Assembly (NCBI GenBank): GCA_005191425.1 | Contig: SUPR01000006.1 | Location: 1 to 32,000, forward strand | Reading direction: 5' to 3' | From: Candidatus Helarchaeota ASGARD archaeon Hel_GB_B | GTDB taxonomy: Archaea > Asgardarchaeota > Lokiarchaeia > Helarchaeales > HEL-GB-B | DNA: 32,000 nt | Part shown: positions 21,314 to 32,000 of the stretch, piece after piece | Numbering within the stretch: position 1 is the first letter of the stretch | How the letters are laid out: every line of letters begins with the position of its first letter | Program-made: the position numbers and the translations under genes | Notes under the pieces: model-generated | What the model was told of the DNA's origin: nothing | Databases searched by the model: none | The model's input: the letters and a program-made list of their open reading frames with translations, nothing else

Positions 21314-21572
21314 ATAATCATCTCTTTTTTTAAATCTTCTATTTTTATTAAGTTAAAATACTTTTTTAGCTTTAAAAACCTTGTGAATTTAGGTCATTTA
21401 TTACTTAATTGTTAATCAATTGGGTATTTAATTGAAAATATTTTCTAAAATTCTTTTATATTATTTTTCACACAATTTTTTATTGAATTAGTAAGAAAGA
21501 ATATGAAAAATAATTAGAAGCATAATTTTGATAATTTTAAACTTATGTACTAATGTTATCATAGTGAAAATA

Positions 21573-22364
21573 ATGAAATCTAATAAAATAATAACAGGAA
21601 TTCAAGGATTTGATGAGTTGATTGAAGGTGGGCTAAATGAATGCGATTCTATACTGTTAATTGGGGGGCCTGGGACAGGTAAAACAATATTTGGACTTCA
21701 ATATATAGTTAATGGAATAAAATATTATAATGAGGCTGGACTGATTGTGCTATTGAAAAATCAAATAGAAGAAATTCGTTTAAAATTAAATTATTTCGGT
21801 TTAAATTTAGATAAATTAATAAATCGAAATCAACTGAATATACTTGATGTATCACCAATTATTACATTGATGGAAAATGGAAATTATAAAATAAAAATAA
21901 AAAATGAGTCAGATACATTAATTGGTGATAAAGATTTTAATATACGAGAGATAATTTCAAGTATTCACCTTAAAAGGAGAAAAATTGAATTTAAAAGGGT
22001 TTTAATTGATTCTTTAATGCCATTATTACTAAAATATGATGATTCATTTCTTTTTATGACTGAATTTGAATTATTATTAAAATCTTTAAAAAAAGCCAAT
22101 ATGACTTCACTGATTTTAACTGAAAATAGTTTTAATAACGATAATTTAAAAATAGCAACACATTTGGTAGATGGAGTAATAAAACTGACATTATCAAGAT
22201 ATGGAAATACTAAAATTAGATATTTGGACATTATTAAAATGTCGAACTTGGGCCATATCTTAGCTACCAAATTATTTGATATTTCAGAACTAGGTATCAA
22301 AATTTTATCTGATAAAAAGATTTCACTAAATGAATCAATTGAAACACTTGATTTAAAGGTATAA
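21573..22364 (+). CDS. single-domain KaiC/RAD55-like RecA-fold ATPase, apparently degenerate; start revised from 21528 to ATG 21573
   Basis: TGIQGFDELIEGGL, GGPGTGKT (Walker A), RVLIDSL (Walker B), VDGVIKL, RYLDIIKM. Confidence 0.85.
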   Translation: MKSNKIITGIQGFDELIEGGLNECDSILLIGGPGTGKTIFGLQYIVNGIKYYNEAGLIVLLKNQIEEIRLKLNYFGLNLDKLINRNQLNILDVSPIITLMENGNYKIKIKNESDTLIGDKDFNIREIISSIHLKRRKIEFKRVLIDSLMPLLLKYDDSFLFMTEFELLLKSLKKANMTSLILTENSFNNDNLKIATHLVDGVIKLTLSRYGNTKIRYLDIIKMSNLGHILATKLFDISELGIKILSDKKISLNESIETLDLKV

Positions 22365-22375
22365 GTGAGTATAAT

Positions 22376-23350
22376 ATGATCTGCATAGTAATATCATTTT
22401 TTGATAATATAAATGGACCAAGACCTTTATTAAGCATTCCAAATACATTAAATGATATAGATCTAAATAATATAGCTTCATTAATTGACAAAACCTTTGA
22501 GACAGGATTTTTTATTTATGAATTTCCTGAATATAAGACTGCTAATTATTTTTTTGAGATTGAATCCGAATGGGCTCGTGGAAACAAAGAAATGGTACTA
22601 TTAACCATTGTATTTGATTTGAATTTTGATTATAATTCATTGGATTTACAGACTATTATGAATGATTTTATAAATGAATTGTCCAATATTACTAACCTAT
22701 TTAAAGCATTTTATATTTTTGATTTTAATAGAAAAAAGGACAATGAAGTTAAATTTTATTATGAAAAATTGAAGGAACTTATTATAGATTTTAAAGGTTC
22801 TCTTCCAAAAGAAACTCTGGCAGTAAACCAGAATCAAATTAAAATTTTTGTTTTTGGACTTGATAGAGCAGGAAAATCTACTATACTAAATCGAGCGAAA
22901 ACCAATTTATTTGTTAAGACCTCTCCGACCATAAATTTGAATATAATGCACCTTTTATTTGGTAATATTCAACTTGATTGTTTTGATGTGAGTGGTCAAA
23001 AGCGATATCGATATACTTGGCGGAGGTTTATAGTTTCATCCCAGTATTTAGTTTTCGTATTAGATGTTAACAGAGAAGATAGATATGAAGAAGCAAAAAT
23101 TGAATTGTGGAAGGTCTTAAGTTATGAAGAAAGTAAAGGTATTCCGTTACTAATATTAATTAATAAGACAGACTTAAAAAAGAAAATAGACTTGAATTAT
23201 TTTATAAATTTTTTAAATTTGTATAAGATTAAGGACAGAAAATGGCATATTATGTCTACATCTGCATTATATAATCAAGGAATAAAAGAAGCATTTGAAT
23301 ATATAATAAAAGATTTATTGTCTAACCAATTAACAATGTTTTCTATGTGA
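22376..23350 (+). CDS. uDENN/longin-like domain fused to an Arf-like small GTPase
   Basis: N-terminal SFFDNINGPRPLLSIP...FEIESEWARGNKEMVLL. GTPase motifs GLDRAGKST, PTINLN, FDVSGQKRYRYTW, NKTD, TSALYNQGIKEAF. Confidence 0.88.
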   Translation: MICIVISFFDNINGPRPLLSIPNTLNDIDLNNIASLIDKTFETGFFIYEFPEYKTANYFFEIESEWARGNKEMVLLTIVFDLNFDYNSLDLQTIMNDFINELSNITNLFKAFYIFDFNRKKDNEVKFYYEKLKELIIDFKGSLPKETLAVNQNQIKIFVFGLDRAGKSTILNRAKTNLFVKTSPTINLNIMHLLFGNIQLDCFDVSGQKRYRYTWRRFIVSSQYLVFVLDVNREDRYEEAKIELWKVLSYEESKGIPLLILINKTDLKKKIDLNYFINFLNLYKIKDRKWHIMSTSALYNQGIKEAFEYIIKDLLSNQLTMFSM

Positions 23351-23377
23351 AAAAAATTTTAATTTATTTTTAATTTG

Positions 23378-23911
23378 TTATTTTTGAATTTGTGAGATTG
23401 TCATTAATATTTTTTTTCCCAAATTTTTGAATGCTAAATCAATATTTTCCCCTGTTTTAGCTGAAGTTTCTAAAAATTCAATTCTAAGTTCTTGTGCTAA
23501 TTTTTCGCCTTCACTTTTAGTGATCATTCGTTGTTCTGTTAAATCAACTTTATTTCCAACTAATATCATGGGAATTTTATGTCCTACATTTACCATTAAA
23601 CGAGAGAACCACTCTTTTACAGCATCAAAAGTATTTCTACGTGTAATATCATAAACTATTAATGCAGCTTCTGCTTTACCATAAAAACGCTTTGCCATAT
23701 TTTGAAAAAGGTTTTGCCCACCAATATCCCAGATAACAAATGTTAATTCAGTGTCCAGGTCTTCGAATAAATATTCTTTTGCCATAATATTGACGCCCAT
23801 AGTACTTTTATAATCATGAATAAATTTGTGATGGACAAATGAATTGAGAACCGCAGTTTTTCCTACCATATATGACCCAATTATTATTACTTTTTTCTTA
23901 ATTTTAATCAT
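23378..23911 (-). CDS. Rab-like small GTPase without a C-terminal prenylation Cys
   Basis: GSYMVGKT, YKSTMGVN, WDIGGQ, FYGKAEAALIVYDIT, GNKVDL, ETSAKTG. Its start overlaps the upstream stop (ATGA, 23908-23911). Confidence 0.93.
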   Translation of the reverse strand: MIKIKKKVIIIGSYMVGKTAVLNSFVHHKFIHDYKSTMGVNIMAKEYLFEDLDTELTFVIWDIGGQNLFQNMAKRFYGKAEAALIVYDITRRNTFDAVKEWFSRLMVNVGHKIPMILVGNKVDLTEQRMITKSEGEKLAQELRIEFLETSAKTGENIDLAFKNLGKKILMTISQIQK

Positions 23912-24903
23912 TTAAATTCCTCCCTTCTAGAAATCTGGTTTATTGGCCTTAATAACGAATAATATTTGTAAATGGGTTTAATGCTAAGTGAATTTTTGAC
24001 AATATTTGCTTTGCAGTCCAAACATTGGTAGAATTCATTCAATTCTTTAAAATATTTCTTACATTTTAAACAATAATGATAATGTCCTAATCTTTGATAG
24101 TCTACTCCTTCAGTTTCTAATTTAAGATTACATTTCATACAAATCATATCATTTTTTATGAACTCATTTTCAAAATCAATATGTCCACATTTAAAGTGTT
24201 CAATAATATTACCTTCAATTATCGTAGATGAATTACAAATTGGACAAATTTTCGATGTTTTAAGATGACTTGATCCACATGAAGGACAAACAACTAAATT
24301 ATCGACCATATATTTTCCTACTATATTTTGTTTTTCCAATTCTTTTAACAAATCTTCGGCTTTAATAGAATTTCCAGCAATTTGTTCCAACTTAGGATAA
24401 TGGACACCATGTATATAATCATATTGGGGAGTAAAAATCGTAGATGGATTTTTTTCTAGAAATTTGACTACTTTGGAAATTTTATACGCTATAATGGGAC
24501 TTACAGGACAATTATTAATTTCGGATATTTTACTCGCTTTTTCAACTATTTCATTAAATAATTGTGGAATAATTTCGTGAGCTTTATCTAAATTTTGGAT
24601 AATTTTATAAAATTGCTCTTTTAAAATTGGTTTAAAAAATCTTGGTGTTTCATTTTCTTCAAGAATTAACATCAAAAGTAAATTATTTTCCCTGCCGCCA
24701 TAATAACATGCGATATGAAATTCATCTGTAAAAAGGGCAGAGAATCGTTCAGTAGTAATATCACCCATTGTCTGAGAGGTAAAAATAAATAATACTTTTT
24801 CTGTATTAAAAACTTTTTTAATCTCATCATCATCTGGATAAATTTCATCTAGTATTGCTCCTATACTATCGTCCCAATGAATTAAAGCTAGTCCGATTGG
24901 CAT
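23908..24903 (-). CDS. longin/uDENN-like N-terminal domain fused to a multi-zinc-ribbon TackOD1-like domain; start likely ATG 24903
   Basis: MPIGLALIHWDDSIGAILDEIYP at the N-terminus. C-terminal HYPKL...CPSC..CPIC..IEHFKCGH..CMKC..GVDY..CLKC..CLDC (11 Cys). Confidence 0.75.
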   Translation of the reverse strand: MPIGLALIHWDDSIGAILDEIYPDDDEIKKVFNTEKVLFIFTSQTMGDITTERFSALFTDEFHIACYYGGRENNLLLMLILEENETPRFFKPILKEQFYKIIQNLDKAHEIIPQLFNEIVEKASKISEINNCPVSPIIAYKISKVVKFLEKNPSTIFTPQYDYIHGVHYPKLEQIAGNSIKAEDLLKELEKQNIVGKYMVDNLVVCPSCGSSHLKTSKICPICNSSTIIEGNIIEHFKCGHIDFENEFIKNDMICMKCNLKLETEGVDYQRLGHYHYCLKCKKYFKELNEFYQCLDCKANIVKNSLSIKPIYKYYSLLRPINQISRREEFK

Positions 24904-25146
24904 TTTTATTTTCAAGAGTTTTTTTAAAATAAATCAATAAAGTTAATTAATATTTACTATAAATTTAGTTTTCAGATGTTATTCATTAATCAAATTAATT
25001 AATATTTTTTTTATCTAAATTTTTGTGAAAATTTGTTGAAAGTCCGTTTTAAGTTCATTATAAATTCTAAAATAAATCTTTAAATTCTATAACATTCAAC
25101 TTATTCTAAACTTAAATTGTCAAAAGTTTAGAAGGATGTTCAATCT

Positions 25147-26035: not shown

Positions 26036-27346
26036 CTAAAGTTTGATGGTCTCTAAGGGTTTGGTTAAAAAGAATTCACCTTGTAATATCTTATTTTTTA
26101 AACTTAAACTTAATTTTATAGCTGTGCACCTATCACTTTGACGGAGTACAATTGGAACCTCTTTATTCTTTATTTCAATTGAACCAATATTGGCTGTAAA
26201 AACACCTAAAGGACATGAGAGACAAGTACCACAATGAAAACAGTTTTTTGTATCATATTCATTATTCTCATTGTACATATAAGGTCGCATCGGGCATAAA
26301 TCCAAAATTATACATGGACGCCTTCTTTTATTGACCTCAGACCAAGGAATACATAATGAACGCGGCTGATTACATAAATCAAAATTGACTTTTATAACTA
26401 GATCAGTATTTTGCCAGACTTTTGCATAATTTGAACTCATAAATGGGACTCGATCATGTATATCGGCTATAGGAAGTTCAATTGTTTCATCTGTTCGTTT
26501 TAAATTATTTAATATTGATTCATTGAGTACAGGAATTGGAACTGCAATTGAATTTATCATTTCAGGGCCATCAGATGTAATAAAACCGCCAAGATAATGG
26601 GGGTCCATTTTTAGAAAATCGGCGAATAAAGACAGATTGGGTTTAGTAGTTGAACTTCGCGTCCCTTTTCCTATGATATATCCAACTGAATTGTTAACAA
26701 GAATTCGAGTGCCAATTCCAATTGTAGCTAAATTTGGGTCTTTTTCTAACGGATTAATTTCTCCGCAGCCACTTATAGTCAGTCCTTTTAAAGGGCCGGG
26801 AAAATCTCTAACATGAAAAATAGTCTTTACCAAATCATTTTTAAGATTTGTAAATGCCATATAATTCTTAAAAGAATTTCTTGTGGCAATCATTTTTGCA
26901 AATTCAATGTCGTCTTTATAAATCTCTTTTTCTATCGTTTTATCCTCAATGGTCGTAATTACGCAATTAATAGGTTTGTTTTCAAGAATGTCCCTAAATA
27001 AATGCCCACCACCATAAGTTTTTGGTTTGTCTTCACTTTTTGCTGGTCCAAATACTTCAAATTCTACCATTCCCAATCGTTCATTTGGACATGGACCTAC
27101 AAAACCTGGAACACCATTAAGCAATATCTTCTTGGCTTTATGAAAAACGCCAGCTTCAGCAACTTTTATTGAAAAAAAAACGGTAGTACCACTCATTAAT
27201 CCTCTTGTTGCAGTAGTAACGACATCGACATCTTCAACCTTAATTGTCTCGCCATTTCTTACTCTTTGGCATAACTCTTCTGCCGTAAGTACAACGGCAG
27301 TTCCACTCTTTATTTTTTTATTTATTTCATCAATAGTTTTTTTCAA
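26036..27346 (-). CDS. DUF39/HcyBio-family metalloprotein with a ferredoxin-like insert (methanogenesis marker 16-like)
   Basis: KTIDEINKKIKSGTAVVLTAEE, DVDVVTTATRGLMSGT, GPCPNERLG, YGGGHLF, SGCGEINP, IGIGTRIL. A Cys cluster lies near the C-terminus, followed by VPIVLRQSDR. No CBS pair. Confidence 0.8.
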   Translation of the reverse strand: MKKTIDEINKKIKSGTAVVLTAEELCQRVRNGETIKVEDVDVVTTATRGLMSGTTVFFSIKVAEAGVFHKAKKILLNGVPGFVGPCPNERLGMVEFEVFGPAKSEDKPKTYGGGHLFRDILENKPINCVITTIEDKTIEKEIYKDDIEFAKMIATRNSFKNYMAFTNLKNDLVKTIFHVRDFPGPLKGLTISGCGEINPLEKDPNLATIGIGTRILVNNSVGYIIGKGTRSSTTKPNLSLFADFLKMDPHYLGGFITSDGPEMINSIAVPIPVLNESILNNLKRTDETIELPIADIHDRVPFMSSNYAKVWQNTDLVIKVNFDLCNQPRSLCIPWSEVNKRRRPCIILDLCPMRPYMYNENNEYDTKNCFHCGTCLSCPLGVFTANIGSIEIKNKEVPIVLRQSDRCTAIKLSLSLKNKILQGEFFLTKPLETIKL

Positions 27347-27524
27347 ATTTTACCTACCTAACCAAAATAGAGAAAATCTCCATTTATTAAGTCCATTTAG
27401 ATTTATCTCTGACATATTTTTATTTTAATATTATTTCATAAAAAAGGTTTCAATTTATTATTTGATTATTTCTATATTTATTGTAAATTTTAATTTTAAC
27501 TTTTTTGCTTTATAACTTAAAAAT

Positions 27525-27776
27525 TTAAGAAGTTTGAGTAGGTATATATTCTTCAAGGACTAATGCACTAGTTGGACAAGCCATCATACATACAAAACAT
27601 TCTTTATCTCGTGTATTATCTACATGTTCAAAACACAGGTCGAGGTTGACTTGAAAATCGTCTTCTTCATATGATATTGCCCCAACTGGACAAGCATTAA
27701 CACAACTCATACATTTTTTACATTTTGCTTTATTTTTTAAAACTGGAATTAAATGTTCATTTTCCATTTTAGACAC
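27525..27776 (-). CDS. 2x[4Fe-4S] dicluster ferredoxin
   Basis: CKKCMSCVNACP and C-x11-CFVCMMACP. Confidence 0.9.
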   Translation of the reverse strand: MSKMENEHLIPVLKNKAKCKKCMSCVNACPVGAISYEEDDFQVNLDLCFEHVDNTRDKECFVCMMACPTSALVLEEYIPTQTS

Positions 27777-28221
27777 TTTTCTTGTTTTAAATAGTAATTC
27801 TAGAAATTTATTTGTAAATTAGAAATTTTTATAATATTTAGAAATTTCTGCATTTTTTTTACAATTTTGATTTTCAGTTTTTTAATTTAAAATTAAATAA
27901 GGAAATTAAGACGGACTTTAGCTCCGTATAAAATAAAACAAATATCATCATTCTTTAAAATGATGGGCAAATTAAATGAAAAAATTGATGATTTAAAAAT
28001 TATTATTTCAATTATGAAAAAATAATTCACTAACTAAAAAAAATGAAGAGAAATTATCCAAAATCAAATTAAATATATAAATTATTAAAATTAGTGTTTT
28101 TCCACGTATTTTATTTATTTTGATTAGAATTCAAGTTAATAATTAACATCCGATTTAAAAAAAATATTAAAAAAAATATTGAAGTTTAATTTTTGTTTTT
28201 TATTTACTTTTTTCTTAAACG

Positions 28222-28897
28222 CTATTTTATTAAATTCGATATCGTTCGGTTCTTTGACTTAATTAGATAGATAGTAATTGCTATACACGCGAAAATACCA
28301 AACTATATAAATATTATCTCAAAACCAGGAATAGCTGGAGCTCTATTTACACTAGGCCCTATTGATTCTCCAGTAGTAGGCAGTCGGACTAATTCTAAGA
28401 CATCAATCGCTGTGAAATAGTATTTATTAACAGACACTGAAGATAATTTGGTCATATAGAATATTTTTTAAAACAAAATTATTTTTACTACCATTATAAA
28501 GAAATATTGAACTATAAGAATTATTATAGATAGTGTTGTTCATTATCCTTCCATTAACTACATGGTTTAGAACAGTCCCATATTGCGAATTATATATTTT
28601 ACATTTGCGAATTATAAAATATGCATTTGTATAAGAAATCGTAATCCCGTTATTAAGTCCGCCACCATCAATTACCTTATTTTCAATTATATATGGATCT
28701 TATTCTGTCCCAGACCCTGGAAAACCTGAAAAACCTGAATTTCCAATGATTATTATCGGTGGATCTGCATTAATAGAAAAATTATCTTTTGAGTTATTTT
28801 TTGACCCAATTAATAAGTTAGTTTGCTGAAAATAACCTAAAAATGTTAATCCTATTACGATTATAGTAATTATTAAATATACTTTATTTCCTTTCAT
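28222..28897 (-). pseudogene. decayed secreted right-handed beta-helix (NosD-like) surface protein with a Loki-CTERM-type tail
   Basis: Signal/TM, then GFPGSGTE*DPYIIENKVIDGGGLNNGITISYTNAYFIIRKCKIYNS...NNTIYNN across a TAA at 28700-28702. A frame change near 28430-28460 leads to ...APAIPGFEIIFI*FGIFACIAITIYLIKSKNR with a TAG at 28303-28305. Confidence 0.8.
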
Positions 28898-29431
28898 TAA
28901 AATTCAACTTTTTAATGAGTTAAATATTTTCAAATTATTTTAATTGTATTTGATGTATTATTTATTTTTAGTGATTTTTGGAGAATAAATAAAGTATAAA
29001 ATATAGAAATGAATTTCTTAGGATCATTGAATTATAAATTAAATCATTTTAAAATTTCTTTCCTTTTGTTAAATAATATGAATAAAATTATTTCATTATG
29101 ATTGACAATAACATCATTTAAACTAAATGAGGAAAAAGATTATTTATTTTGTTATGTAATCCCAAATGCTATTTTAGCTTGAATTTCTAAAAAAGAATCT
29201 AATCGAAATAAATTATAGGATAATTTTTTTTATTAATTATTATTGCATTTAAAGATATAAAACATATTAAATGACAAATCTAAATAAATTAATAGATGAA
29301 TAGTTTACATATTGTATAATTATGAAAATTTTTTTTTTATGATGAATATAAAAAAAGATAGAGATATGTTTAATAATCAATGAAAAGATAGTGTTAAGAA
29401 TTTAAAAATTAACTAGAAAAAGTCCATAATA

Positions 29432-30676
29432 TTAGGTTATTAAATTAGCAATCCAAGGGATTAAGATATCATCATTTTTTATATAGAATTTTTCTGTATT
29501 TTTATGTATACTTGCGAAGAAAACTAATTTATTGTTTAAAAAGCGTTTGATTATAGTAAGAATTTTTTGTCTATCCAAATTAATATCAATTGAATCAATA
29601 TTTTGAAATCTTCCATAATAAAAGATCTCGATATTTAAATTTGAGAGAAAATTTATTAAATAATTATAAAGGTCATTACATATTTCGTCATTTTCAGCCC
29701 AATATCCTAGTTTTAAACATGAACTGTCCATTAGTAATATATTATTTGTCCCAATTTTTTCAGCTTGCTCCCTTAATATATTATTTATAACAAATTTAAC
29801 ATCTTTATTAGCTATTTGTAAAATAGCGTGGGAAAAAAGATTGAAGATTGTCATGTCATCAAATATAGAGGTGATATAAAATTTAAAATTGAAATTCTCT
29901 TCTTTAATTAGAAATTTTATTTCATTTTTCATTTTTTCTAATTTTAAATTGATTTCACGATTGTCTTTAATATTAGGGTCCATTTTGTGGAAACAGATGA
30001 TAATATATGGTTCTTCACTCAAATAATTGTAAATTTTTAAAATGTTTTTTAGATATTCAAGGTTTTCTCCAAATCTATTAGATTGTACATCAATTACATA
30101 AATAACTACGTTAGTACCCACAAAAACCCGATGTGGCTGATTTAAATATTGGGTTCGATATTTTTTTTGCCCGCCCAAATCCCATAATTGAATATCACAG
30201 TAATTTATATCAAATTTTTCGCGTTCAATTCCTTTTGTTGGTTTTAATAAATTTAATGCTTTTAAAAATTCAATGTAATTTTTTTCGTATTTATTAAAGA
30301 ATCGATTTCTTATTGCTGTTTTTCCTGCATTATCAAGCCCAAATAAGTTTATTTTTTTAATATTTTTATTATGTTTATTATCTATTTGCGAAATTAGTTT
30401 AGCTATAATCACATATCTCTCAAATTCAAATCGGTCTATATTTAATTCATTTGAAATTCTATCAATATCATCAATTTCAAGTTTTAATAAATCTTTGATT
30501 TTAAAGATATGAAAGTTTTCTTGGAGAATTTGAGCGATATTTGGACTTATTTCTTTAATTTCAATAATAGATTTATTTAAAATATCTTCTTTTGACACTT
30601 TTTCTTGTAAAGAAATTTTGAAAAATGAATTTATTCGTTGAAATAAATCATCTGATTTTAATGTATTTAATACCAA
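29432..30676 (-). CDS. HhH-like domain + Rag/Gtr-like small GTPase + roadblock-like C-terminal domain
   Basis: IIEIKEISPNIAQILQENFHIFKIKDL; GLDNAGKT, KPTKG, WDLGGQ, CFHKMD, ITSIFD; C-terminal INNILREQAEKIGTNNILLMD. Confidence 0.8.
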   Translation of the reverse strand: MVLNTLKSDDLFQRINSFFKISLQEKVSKEDILNKSIIEIKEISPNIAQILQENFHIFKIKDLLKLEIDDIDRISNELNIDRFEFERYVIIAKLISQIDNKHNKNIKKINLFGLDNAGKTAIRNRFFNKYEKNYIEFLKALNLLKPTKGIEREKFDINYCDIQLWDLGGQKKYRTQYLNQPHRVFVGTNVVIYVIDVQSNRFGENLEYLKNILKIYNYLSEEPYIIICFHKMDPNIKDNREINLKLEKMKNEIKFLIKEENFNFKFYITSIFDDMTIFNLFSHAILQIANKDVKFVINNILREQAEKIGTNNILLMDSSCLKLGYWAENDEICNDLYNYLINFLSNLNIEIFYYGRFQNIDSIDINLDRQKILTIIKRFLNNKLVFFASIHKNTEKFYIKNDDILIPWIANLIT

Positions 30677-30990
30677 ATGTACACCCTTAGTATATTTTTC
30701 TGGTTTTTGCTATTTTTTAAAAACACATTAAAATTTACTTGGCAATTTCAAATCAAATATTTTTTATTGTCTAAAATATTGCAGATTATTAAAAATAAAT
30801 TATGGCTAATGTTTGGTGAATGTAATAAAAATTAATATTTGGAAATTTTTTAATTTTAGAACATTAAAATCATAATACTAAGATATGAAGATAAATTAAA
30901 ATTAAATAATTTAAAAAAGCAATTTAATAAAAATCCAAAACAAGTTATATTCTTGTATAAATTATTTTTATATTCTTTTCAAAAATTTCA

Positions 30991-31548
30991 TTATTCTAAT
31001 GTAGCATGTCGTCTATTAATATCTTGTTCGGTAATATTTTTTTCGTCCATAATTACTCTGGCTATTGAATCGAAAAAAGCTAATGTTGTAATGTCAAATA
31101 ACGAAGTATATGGGGCTAATATATCATGACCAGAATTTAAATCAGCTTTTGATTTACTTTGAATATTAATTATCAAATCAGAGATTTTTCCAATTGTTGA
31201 TTCAGGATGTGATGTTATCAGAATAATTTTGCCATTTAATTCTTTACTTTTCCTGGCTATGGCTACAGTTGAAGTCGTCTTACCACTACCACTTATTAAT
31301 ATAAGCAAATCATTTGCAATAAATTGAGGAGTAATAGAATCACCGATAAATATCGAATCAAACCCTAAATGCATTAACCGTTGTGCAAATGCTCTTCCTA
31401 TAAATCCAGATCTACCTGCTCCATAAATAAATATTTTTCTCGAATCATAAATATATTTTACAAACTCATTAATATCATGTTCTACTATTTTATCTTTTAT
31501 TTTATTAATATTATCTGCAATCTGTTCCATTGTTTGTTTAAATCGCAT
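30991..31548 (-). CDS. hxlB: 6-phospho-3-hexuloisomerase (SIS domain)
   Basis: IFIYGAGRSGFIGRAFAQRLMHLG, LISGSGKT, APYTSLFD, RHATLE C-terminus. Confidence 0.93.
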   Translation of the reverse strand: MRFKQTMEQIADNINKIKDKIVEHDINEFVKYIYDSRKIFIYGAGRSGFIGRAFAQRLMHLGFDSIFIGDSITPQFIANDLLILISGSGKTTSTVAIARKSKELNGKIILITSHPESTIGKISDLIINIQSKSKADLNSGHDILAPYTSLFDITTLAFFDSIARVIMDEKNITEQDINRRHATLE

Positions 31549-31712
31549 CTAAATACCTCAATTTGATAATTTGATATAAATTAATCACCATAATTTTTAA
31601 TAAAAATTATTTTGTTGAACGATATTACTTTAAATAGAATTTTATTATTTAAATTTCTGATTTTCAAATATTCTATAAAATATTTAAATTAAAATGTTTA
31701 TTCTCATAAATA

Positions 31713-32000
31713 ATGAATAATTTAAAATTTGGTGATTTGATCTTGACTTTGCCAATTATTAAAGAATGTAAAGTTAATATTTTAAAAAGAATGTTATTTC
31801 TAGAAGAAAAATATAATGAGAAAGGTTATATTAGTCCATTTTCACATTATGAAGCGCTTCTTACAGCTTCTAATATAGCCTTTTGGAAAATTGCCAAACG
31901 GGGAGTCATAACACCAGAGGATGTCAGGACAGCAATTTATCAGCTAGAGAAAGCTGGTTTAATAGAAATTATTTCGAGAAATAGTATTAAATTATTAGAG
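31713..32000 (+). CDS. hypothetical protein with a winged-helix-like segment, 3'-truncated at window edge (not in ORF track)
   Basis: Manual translation: MNNLKFGDLILTLPIIKECKVNILKRMLFLEEKYNEKGYISPFSHYEALL...ITPEDVRTAIYQLEKAGLIEIISRNSIKLLE, with no stop codon. Confidence 0.6.
   Translation, partial: MNNLKFGDLILTLPIIKECKVNILKRMLFLEEKYNEKGYISPFSHYEALLTASNIAFWKIAKRGVITPEDVRTAIYQLEKAGLIEIISRNSIKLLE

Follow-up and report, generated by a model that had tools for sequence, protein, structure and literature searches.

The Rag GTPases and their longin-domain GTPase-activating proteins (GAPs), GATOR1 and folliculin, are the core of eukaryotic nutrient signaling. Asgard archaea possess many Rag-like GTPases and many longins, almost none of which have been matched to partners. 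It is established that Asgard archaea encode Rag-like GTPases carrying a roadblock or longin domain (bioRxiv 10.1101/2020.10.19.343400; PMC10933270), and two have crystal structures in the Protein Data Bank (PDB): LokiRagO (8yl2), a homotetrameric, RagA-like protein of Lokiarchaeota, and the monomeric LokiRagM (8zla/9m28). Our literature search found no paper on 8yl2, LokiRagO or LokiRagM. Tran et al. (2024; PMC10933270) marked the extra domains of the Rag-like GTPases of Prometheoarchaeum MK-D1 with a '?' and reported few operon links in that organism, and a survey of 2025 (PMC12290439) asks which GTPases serve the Asgard longins that possess a Gly-Pro (GP) motif. Here we analyze a member of this GTPase class encoded in a 32,000-nucleotide window (the whole stretch of DNA analyzed, positions 1 to 32,000 of contig SUPR01000006.1, assembly GCA_005191425.1) from the Helarchaeota archaeon Hel_GB_B. 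The gene occupies 29432..30676 on the minus strand (414 codons, TTG start, stop codon 29432-29434), and its product, denoted P0001, consists of an N-terminal domain of the double helix-hairpin-helix type, (HhH)2, a Rag-like GTPase domain and a C-terminal roadblock domain, a three-domain identity in which we have high confidence. Among the known Asgard Rag-like GTPases, P0001 belongs to a large HhH-bearing subfamily not previously described, of which it is a divergent, otherwise ordinary representative. The Rag-plus-roadblock core was already known, as the initial annotation of this DNA had stated; the present analysis adds that the domain at the N-terminus of this subfamily can be named as (HhH)2, and that HhH-Rag genes repeatedly adjoin genes for GP-motif longins, which provides concrete pairs to test. 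In what follows, L, G and C numbers denote the loci, genomes and contigs compared, G000 being the genome of P0001 itself.

LokiRagO is the best sequence and fold match of P0001 (28-29% identity). It has HKFD/TTIYD-type motifs and, like P0001, a helix before strand 1, but it is 342 residues long, of which only ~45 precede the P-loop, and does not have the complete (HhH)2 domain. LokiRagM aligns with the P0001 G domain only (Z 16.2). The eukaryotic Rag/Gtr proteins (RagA/B, RagC/D, Gtr1, Gtr2) share with P0001 the geometry of G domain and roadblock, the HKMD, TSI[W/F]D and WDxGGQ motifs and the absence of a C-terminal lipidation cysteine, and their pairing is echoed by the tandem, unlike Rag-like genes found in relatives of P0001; they differ in that identity is only 17-20% and that P0001 has an Arf-like P-loop and the added (HhH)2 domain. 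The Rag-like GTPases of MK-D1, which are close to Arf and carry roadblock or longin domains, belong to the same class as P0001; compared with their published description (PMC10933270), we read the N-terminal '?' as (HhH)2-like and add the neighborhood link to GP-motif longins.

Residues 105-290 of P0001 (29807..30364, minus strand, as are all features of this gene) were shown by Pfam and by residue-level alignment to RagA and Gtr1 to form a predicted G domain of Rag/Gtr type with every G motif intact. Read in the translation, G1 is GLDNAGKT (residues 113-120, 30317-30340), G2 is T147 (within 30230-30241) and G3 is DLGGQ (residues 166-170, 30167-30181), and the WDLGGQ that includes G3 aligned with WDCGGQ of RagA. 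The Rag-like signatures singled out by the initial annotation, G4 HKMD (residues 230-233, 29978-29989) and G5 TSIFD (residues 269-273, 29858-29872), align with HKMD and TSIWD of RagA and Gtr1. The residues for nucleotide binding and hydrolysis are complete (K119/T120, T147, D166, Q170 and H230-D233). The top Pfam model is Gtr1_RagA (PF04670; E 1.8e-27, 96.7 bits against a curated cut-off of 22 bits, residues 108-320), followed by the weaker Arf (6.7e-17, 62.0 bits), Roc (37.9 bits) and Ras (27.4 bits) models. When PDB sequences are ranked against P0001, 8yl2 (5.7e-35) and 8zla/9m28 (2e-23) come first, then RagA, RagC, RagD and Gtr1 at 1e-12 to 1e-8, and Arl and Arf proteins only at 1e-6 or weaker.

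The C-terminal ~120 amino acids were assigned to a roadblock domain (residues 291-414, 29435..29806) from the secondary structure of a model, full-length superposition and Foldseek. In the full-length AlphaFold2 (AF2) model (22-sequence alignment, pLDDT 73.9, pTM 0.70), the tail comprises helix 291-308, strands 312-317 and 322-327, helix 330-346, strands 372-380 and 383-391, and helix 402-413, in the order α-β-β-α-β-β-α. VIA-align superposed model residues 106-409 on 8yl2 with Z 22.3 and residues 104-410 on Gtr1, RagA and RagC with Z 20-21 (~270-280 aligned residues), whereas chains with a G domain only reached Z 15-16. Because full-length Rag proteins score so far above G-only chains, the predicted structure is shown to place the roadblock domain as in Gtr1, RagA, RagC and LokiRagO, which bears out the roadblock-like tail of the initial annotation. 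The top Foldseek match was 8yl2, followed by full-length RagA, Gtr1 and RagC (~312 aligned columns, TM score 0.71-0.73 by target). Pfam searches with the isolated tails of P0001 and of two relatives gave nothing significant, and a two-copy model of tail residues 286-414, run without controls, scored 0.12 against a mark of 0.42, a value that speaks neither for nor against a homodimer.

The N-terminal domain (residues 1-100, 30377..30676) was delimited from an AF2 model, hhalign, profiles and fold matches, and contains a leading helix (residues 8-16) and a five-helix (HhH)2-like core (residues 29-96, nucleotides 30389-30592). The AF2 model of residues 1-105, built with 96 relatives, has pLDDT 87.8, and its core helices (29-33, 45-55, 60-65, 68-78 and 82-96) have pLDDT ~90-97. 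Aligned by hhalign with genuine HhH domains of its own genome (those of RadA, a Hel308-like protein and Dpo4, and three HHH_5-bearing proteins of unassigned function), the N-terminal family scored 97.6% with E 3e-12. Used in hmmsearch, the profile of the 96 relatives matches the HhH thumb of DinB (2.5e-6) and the acidic repeats of NusA (8.6e-6), and also RecG, the C-terminal domain (CTD) of the RNA polymerase α-subunit and the N-terminal domain (NTD) of Rad51; within its own genome it recovers the HhH domains of RadA, the Hel308-like helicase and Dpo4. Individually, 21 of the 96 family members match Pfam HHH_5 and 18 match DUF4332, although the P0001 N-terminus alone and two relatives gave no significant Pfam match, the sole lead being HHH_5 in P0037 (E 0.076). 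Structural comparison is consistent with these profiles: VIA-align gave Z 5.4-7.5 to the Y-family polymerase thumb, the NTDs of RAD51 paralogues, AF1548, acidic repeat 2 (AR2) of NusA and the α-CTD, values too low to be decisive alone, and an independent ESM Atlas model gave TM scores of 0.57-0.65 to Y-family polymerase thumbs and RecG. In a Foldseek search of the PDB, the N-terminal model matched nothing at E<=0.001; Dpo4 came closest (0.31). At the level of profile comparison, the N-terminal domain of P0001 is homologous to (HhH)2 domains. In our literature searches we found no paper joining Asgard archaea, small GTPases and the helix-hairpin-helix, and none naming the N-terminal domain of these Rag-like GTPases.

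The degeneracy that the initial annotation had noticed, EISP in place of GIGP, was recovered by column counts in the 96-relative alignment, where the first hairpin of P0001 is E42-I43-S44-P45 (30542..30553). The family consensus at this hairpin is L-K-G-I and P0001 has I-K-E-I-S-P; glycine is present there in 55% of the 96 relatives, and the second glycine of the Gly-hydrophobic-Gly hairpin is missing from the whole family. In P0001, E42 replaces the first-hairpin glycine, the second hairpin, N79-I80-D81, also has no glycine, and the protein therefore does not display the Gly-hydrophobic-Gly hairpin associated with contact to the phosphate backbone. The domain is acidic in P0001 (isoelectric point (pI) 4.97); across the family its net charge ranges from -8 to +13 and is not diagnostic, with a median of +2 and 47% of members at +3 or more. 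P0001 shares the five-helix fold with the (HhH)2 domains of the Rad51/RadA NTD, the Y-family thumb, NusA AR1/AR2 and the α-CTD, and differs from them by the lost hairpin glycines and by the extra helix that precedes the core.

The N-terminal 100 residues belong to P0001, because the first Met codon occurs only at residue 232 and the TTG start is at most ~5 residues away from where aligned relatives have their start Met. This TTG (30676-30674) is 5 nucleotides downstream of GGGTG (30682..30686, minus strand), a putative Shine-Dalgarno-like element read from the sequence. DNA of the P0001 gene is present in several hydrothermal-vent and marine-sediment metagenomes, and no RNA run is among the runs listed as carrying it. 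An 8.3-kb contig from another metagenome run covers 27400-31000 with 13 differences to the window, four of which fall in the P0001 gene: three are synonymous, one is M275L and there is no indel. The reading frame is intact in other strains with only these changes, which supports its maintenance under selection.

A profile search over 1.84 billion representative sequences recovered 423 representatives at E<=1e-30, and dozens of 50%-identity clusters span the whole three-domain profile; in all, the architecture is found in more than 100 sequence clusters. The N-terminal domain is common to 107 of the 116 relatives that have 85-140 residues before the P-loop. The genome encoding P0001 (3.5 Mb, 182 contigs, completeness 93.7%) has at least 12 strong Rag-like genes, and four of them, on C150, C134, C117 and C45, carry the N-terminal domain. 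In a tree built from the G domain and tail only, proteins with the N-terminal domain group together with support of 92 in the Shimodaira-Hasegawa-like approximate likelihood ratio test (SH-aLRT); the (HhH)2 domain is shown to mark a large, roughly monophyletic Asgard subfamily. All named relatives of P0001 are from Asgard archaea: Helarchaeota, Lokiarchaeota, Thorarchaeota, Hodarchaeota and Sigynarchaeota. Among the genomes of 30 relatives there is no copy of P0001 more than 42% identical, and the genome of the same genus reaches 35%.

The best database match of P0001 is the P0002-P0018 clade (33-34% identity), and the possibility that P0001 is the orthologue of that clade was considered and rejected as unproven. 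In G001, a genome of the same genus, a P0010-type gene is 58% identical to P0010 but only 35% to P0001; a remnant of that clade's characteristic longin neighbor, the longin-TPR gene, persists in the P0001 genome, on C103; in G003, P0001 has its reciprocal best hit in another gene, one linked to a longin-Arf gene; and the tree does not settle the branching among P0001, P0125 and the P0002-P0018 clade.

The neighborhoods of the relatives connect HhH-Rag genes with GP-motif longins. Every locus read in the P0002-P0018 clade (L001, L002/L003, L018, L019, L020, L039 in G002, L040 in G001 and L041 in G004) has, after the HhH-Rag gene, one gene for a HEAT-repeat protein of ~620 amino acids and one for a tetratricopeptide repeat (TPR) protein of ~820 amino acids. 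A short Rag-like gene of 304-311 codons lies at most ~0.8 kb upstream in L002/L003, L018, L020, G002 and G004, and is not adjacent in L001, L019 and L040. Over its first ~140 residues the TPR protein is a homologue of the longin encoded at 22376 in the window (35-37% identity, 1e-17); these N-termini keep the GP motif and the arginine of that longin and likewise resemble models of the NPRL2, FLCN and SMCR8 longins (TM score 0.70-0.75). The module in Helarchaeota-type relatives consists of short Rag (304-311 amino acids), HhH-Rag (402), HEAT (~620) and GP-longin-TPR (~820), and a 401-amino acid protein of no known family is often encoded upstream of it. In G003, from another family of the same order, a 406-amino acid HhH-Rag protein that is the reciprocal best hit of P0001 is encoded directly beside (0-nucleotide gap) a 321-amino acid longin-Arf fusion, itself the reciprocal best hit of the 22376 protein (39-40% identity). 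These two genes stand in a head-to-tail run of five on one strand of C83 (L042:7946-12905), encoding a response regulator (307 amino acids), a 168-amino acid protein of no family, the HhH-Rag, the longin-Arf and a second HhH-Rag-like protein (416 amino acids). Locus L045 combines the HhH-Rag gene P0124 (36% identity to P0001), a pair of Ras-like and TackOD1 genes, a KaiC-like ATPase gene and a longin-Arf gene (43% to the 22376 protein), which is the gene set of window positions 21528-24915. L045 also has a second TackOD1 gene adjoining the longin-Arf gene; its ATPase gene, of KaiC/GvpD-like type, stands with genes for a response regulator and for PAS histidine kinases next to the HhH-Rag gene. 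Across the loci read, these neighborhoods support a functional association of HhH-Rag proteins with GP-motif longins, short of a GAP-substrate relation.

The P0001 genome has no member of the short-Rag partner clade in the tree. On its contig C103 (C103:18023-18354; L028:4024-4353) there is a 109-amino acid open reading frame (ORF) that matches the C-terminal 109 residues of the 822-amino acid longin-TPR protein of L019 at 97% identity, and the nucleotide identity (98.9%) breaks off sharply at C103:18354. Either this strain lost the Rag/HEAT/longin-TPR module by deletion, or C103 is a chimeric join.

The longin gene at 22376..23350 (plus strand), described in the initial annotation as FLCN-like, was upheld in its longin part; the protein is not a bare longin, being a 324-amino acid fusion of a longin (residues 1-147, nucleotides 22376-22816) to an Arf-family GTPase domain (residues 148-313, Pfam 5e-43) rather than to a DENN or other non-GTPase body. 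The Atlas model of the longin resembles NPRL2 clusters (TM score 0.73 and 0.70), Folliculin (0.72 and 0.75) and SMCR8 (0.74), in comparisons where both sides are predicted models. Six homologues of this longin all keep G14-P15, the GP motif, and R68, in WARG, a candidate arginine finger. It resembles the FLCN, NPRL2 and SMCR8 GAPs and the GP-motif Asgard longins (PMC12290439) in its predicted fold and has the invariant GP between strands 1 and 2 and an invariant arginine that may correspond to their catalytic one, and it differs in what follows: FLCN-type GAPs carry DENN, whereas this longin is fused to an Arf-like GTPase and those of the relatives to TPR repeats. A search of the longin profile against PDB sequences gave nothing significant. 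Longins of this type number only three in the 3.5-Mb genome, so the probability that one falls within 7 kb of the P0001 gene by chance is ~1%. The initial annotation had proposed P0001 as the GAP substrate of this longin; P0001 could be such a substrate, and the proposed link gains comparative support from the neighborhoods of the relatives. A gene for a KaiC-family ATPase (21528-22364) ends 12 nucleotides before the longin-Arf gene, and because of this short gap the two probably form one operon.

Taken as a whole, the reading that we favor, and consider moderately probable, is that P0001 belongs to the Asgard Rag-like group and works as a small-GTPase switch. It would cycle between GTP and GDP states, and by analogy with the Rags its roadblock tail would act as a platform for dimerization or docking. 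Its partner may be P0001 itself or another Rag-like paralogue; in the neighboring clade, the genes of relatives form tandems with one for a short Rag-like protein. The (HhH)2 module would be an adaptor, and in P0001 it more probably binds protein than nucleic acid because the domain is acidic and the hairpin glycines are lost. Hydrolysis of GTP would probably be regulated by a longin of the folliculin/NPRL2 type with a GP motif, a proposal made because such genes recur beside HhH-Rag genes; the sole candidate of this kind nearby in the window is the longin-Arf fusion at 22376. The longin link to the HhH-Rag proteins is tentative, and we place it somewhat below an even chance. A wider scheme, which we regard as unlikely, would make HhH-Rag proteins and GP-motif longins an archaeal Rag-GAP module, a prokaryotic counterpart of the Rags with GATOR1 or folliculin, to which the relatives add a short Rag-like subunit, a HEAT scaffold and a TPR body; docking to the scaffold or to nucleic acid would then fall to the (HhH)2 domain, and P0001 with the longin-Arf protein would be a rearranged version.

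Several observations weigh against this switch and its longin regulation. The P-loop, GLDNAGKT, is Arf-like, as originally annotated, and unlike GKSGSGKT of RagA, and the placement of P0001 with Rag rather than Arf/Arl derives from hidden Markov model scores and from pairwise and PDB matches to eukaryotic proteins. P0001 joins P0125 and the P0002-P0018 clade with an SH-aLRT of 91, which is not decisive, on a long branch (0.88) and with unusual composition, and its closest relatives are 33-37% identical even within the same genus. No gene for a Rag-like partner, HEAT or TPR protein is adjacent to the P0001 gene in the window. The 22376 gene lies 6 kb away on the opposite strand with six unrelated genes between, and its own Arf-like domain is the more obvious client of its longin.

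That Arf-like P-loop also counts in favor of a very improbable alternative, in which P0001 is an Arf-family (ArfR-type) GTPase as implied by public annotation: the NCBI names its relatives 'ADP-ribosylation factor-like protein', the Pfam Arf model matches at 6.7e-17, and Tran et al. found this Asgard class to be structurally close to Arf (PMC10933270). However, Gtr1_RagA outscores Arf by 35 bits, HKMD and TSIFD are as in RagA and Gtr1, RagA, RagC and Gtr1 outrank every Arf/Arl chain by both sequence and fold, the roadblock tail is present in Rag geometry, and the HhH domain occupies the place of the Arf N-terminal amphipathic helix. Still less probable is that P0001 is a decaying orphan paralogue with no function left, stranded after the loss of the canonical module of short Rag, HhH-Rag, HEAT and longin-TPR. 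The long branch, odd composition, degenerate hairpin, absence of adjacent partners, 1.65-kb gene-poor stretch downstream and 109-amino acid longin-TPR remnant on C103 would fit decay, but a 414-codon frame that is open with every G motif intact, strain variants limited to three synonymous and one conservative change without indels, and AF2 models that are confident in all three domains would not.

The function of the N-terminal domain invites a different alternative, that (HhH)2 binds DNA or RNA without sequence specificity and couples the GTPase cycle to nucleic acid, for instance in the nucleoid, in repair or in transcription. Its nearest relatives by sequence and fold are mostly DNA-binding HhH domains (the Y-family thumb, the Rad51/RadA NTD, RecG and Hel308 domain 5), the domain is often basic across the family, and many members keep the K-G-I hairpin. 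Set against this, P0001 has Glu for the hairpin Gly, no Gly in its second hairpin and a pI of 4.97; the same fold binds protein in NusA AR1/AR2 and in the RNA polymerase α-CTD, which are also among the matches; and, in the loci read, genes of nucleic-acid metabolism do not recur next to the HhH-Rag family. We consider this alternative improbable, and the coupling of nucleotide state to nucleic-acid binding, which the initial annotation had suggested, is weakened as a reading of P0001 and appears the less likely one, because of the acidic pI and the hairpins without glycine.

The remaining features of the window concern the surroundings of the two genes. The window has a G+C content of 22-33%. 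The P0001 gene is solitary, with a SIS-domain gene upstream and, downstream, a 1.65-kb AT-rich stretch without long ORFs (27777-29431, ~22% G+C, no ORF above 65 codons). An Rfam scan of 27000-32000 gave no match, and remnants of HEAT, PAS-kinase or other neighbor genes sought in 27777-29431 gave nothing at E<=1 beyond noise. The stretch may be a decayed gene: it contains short minus-strand fragments, one with a signal-peptide-like start, and a piece of ~60 amino acids similar to stretches on C149, C121 and C96, and other strains have a 1-base insertion at position 28035. Beyond the longin-Arf gene, a Ras/Rab-like GTPase gene (23378-23911) and a TackOD1 output-domain gene (23908-24915), identified by Pfam, overlap by 4 nucleotides on the minus strand (23378..24915), the same pair occurring in L045. 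Elsewhere in the P0001 genome, a 510-codon frame at C92:34547-36079 (locus L030) represents a second kind of HhH-GTPase fusion, in which the N-terminal domain is HhH-like and residues 196-321 form an Arf/Roc-like G domain.

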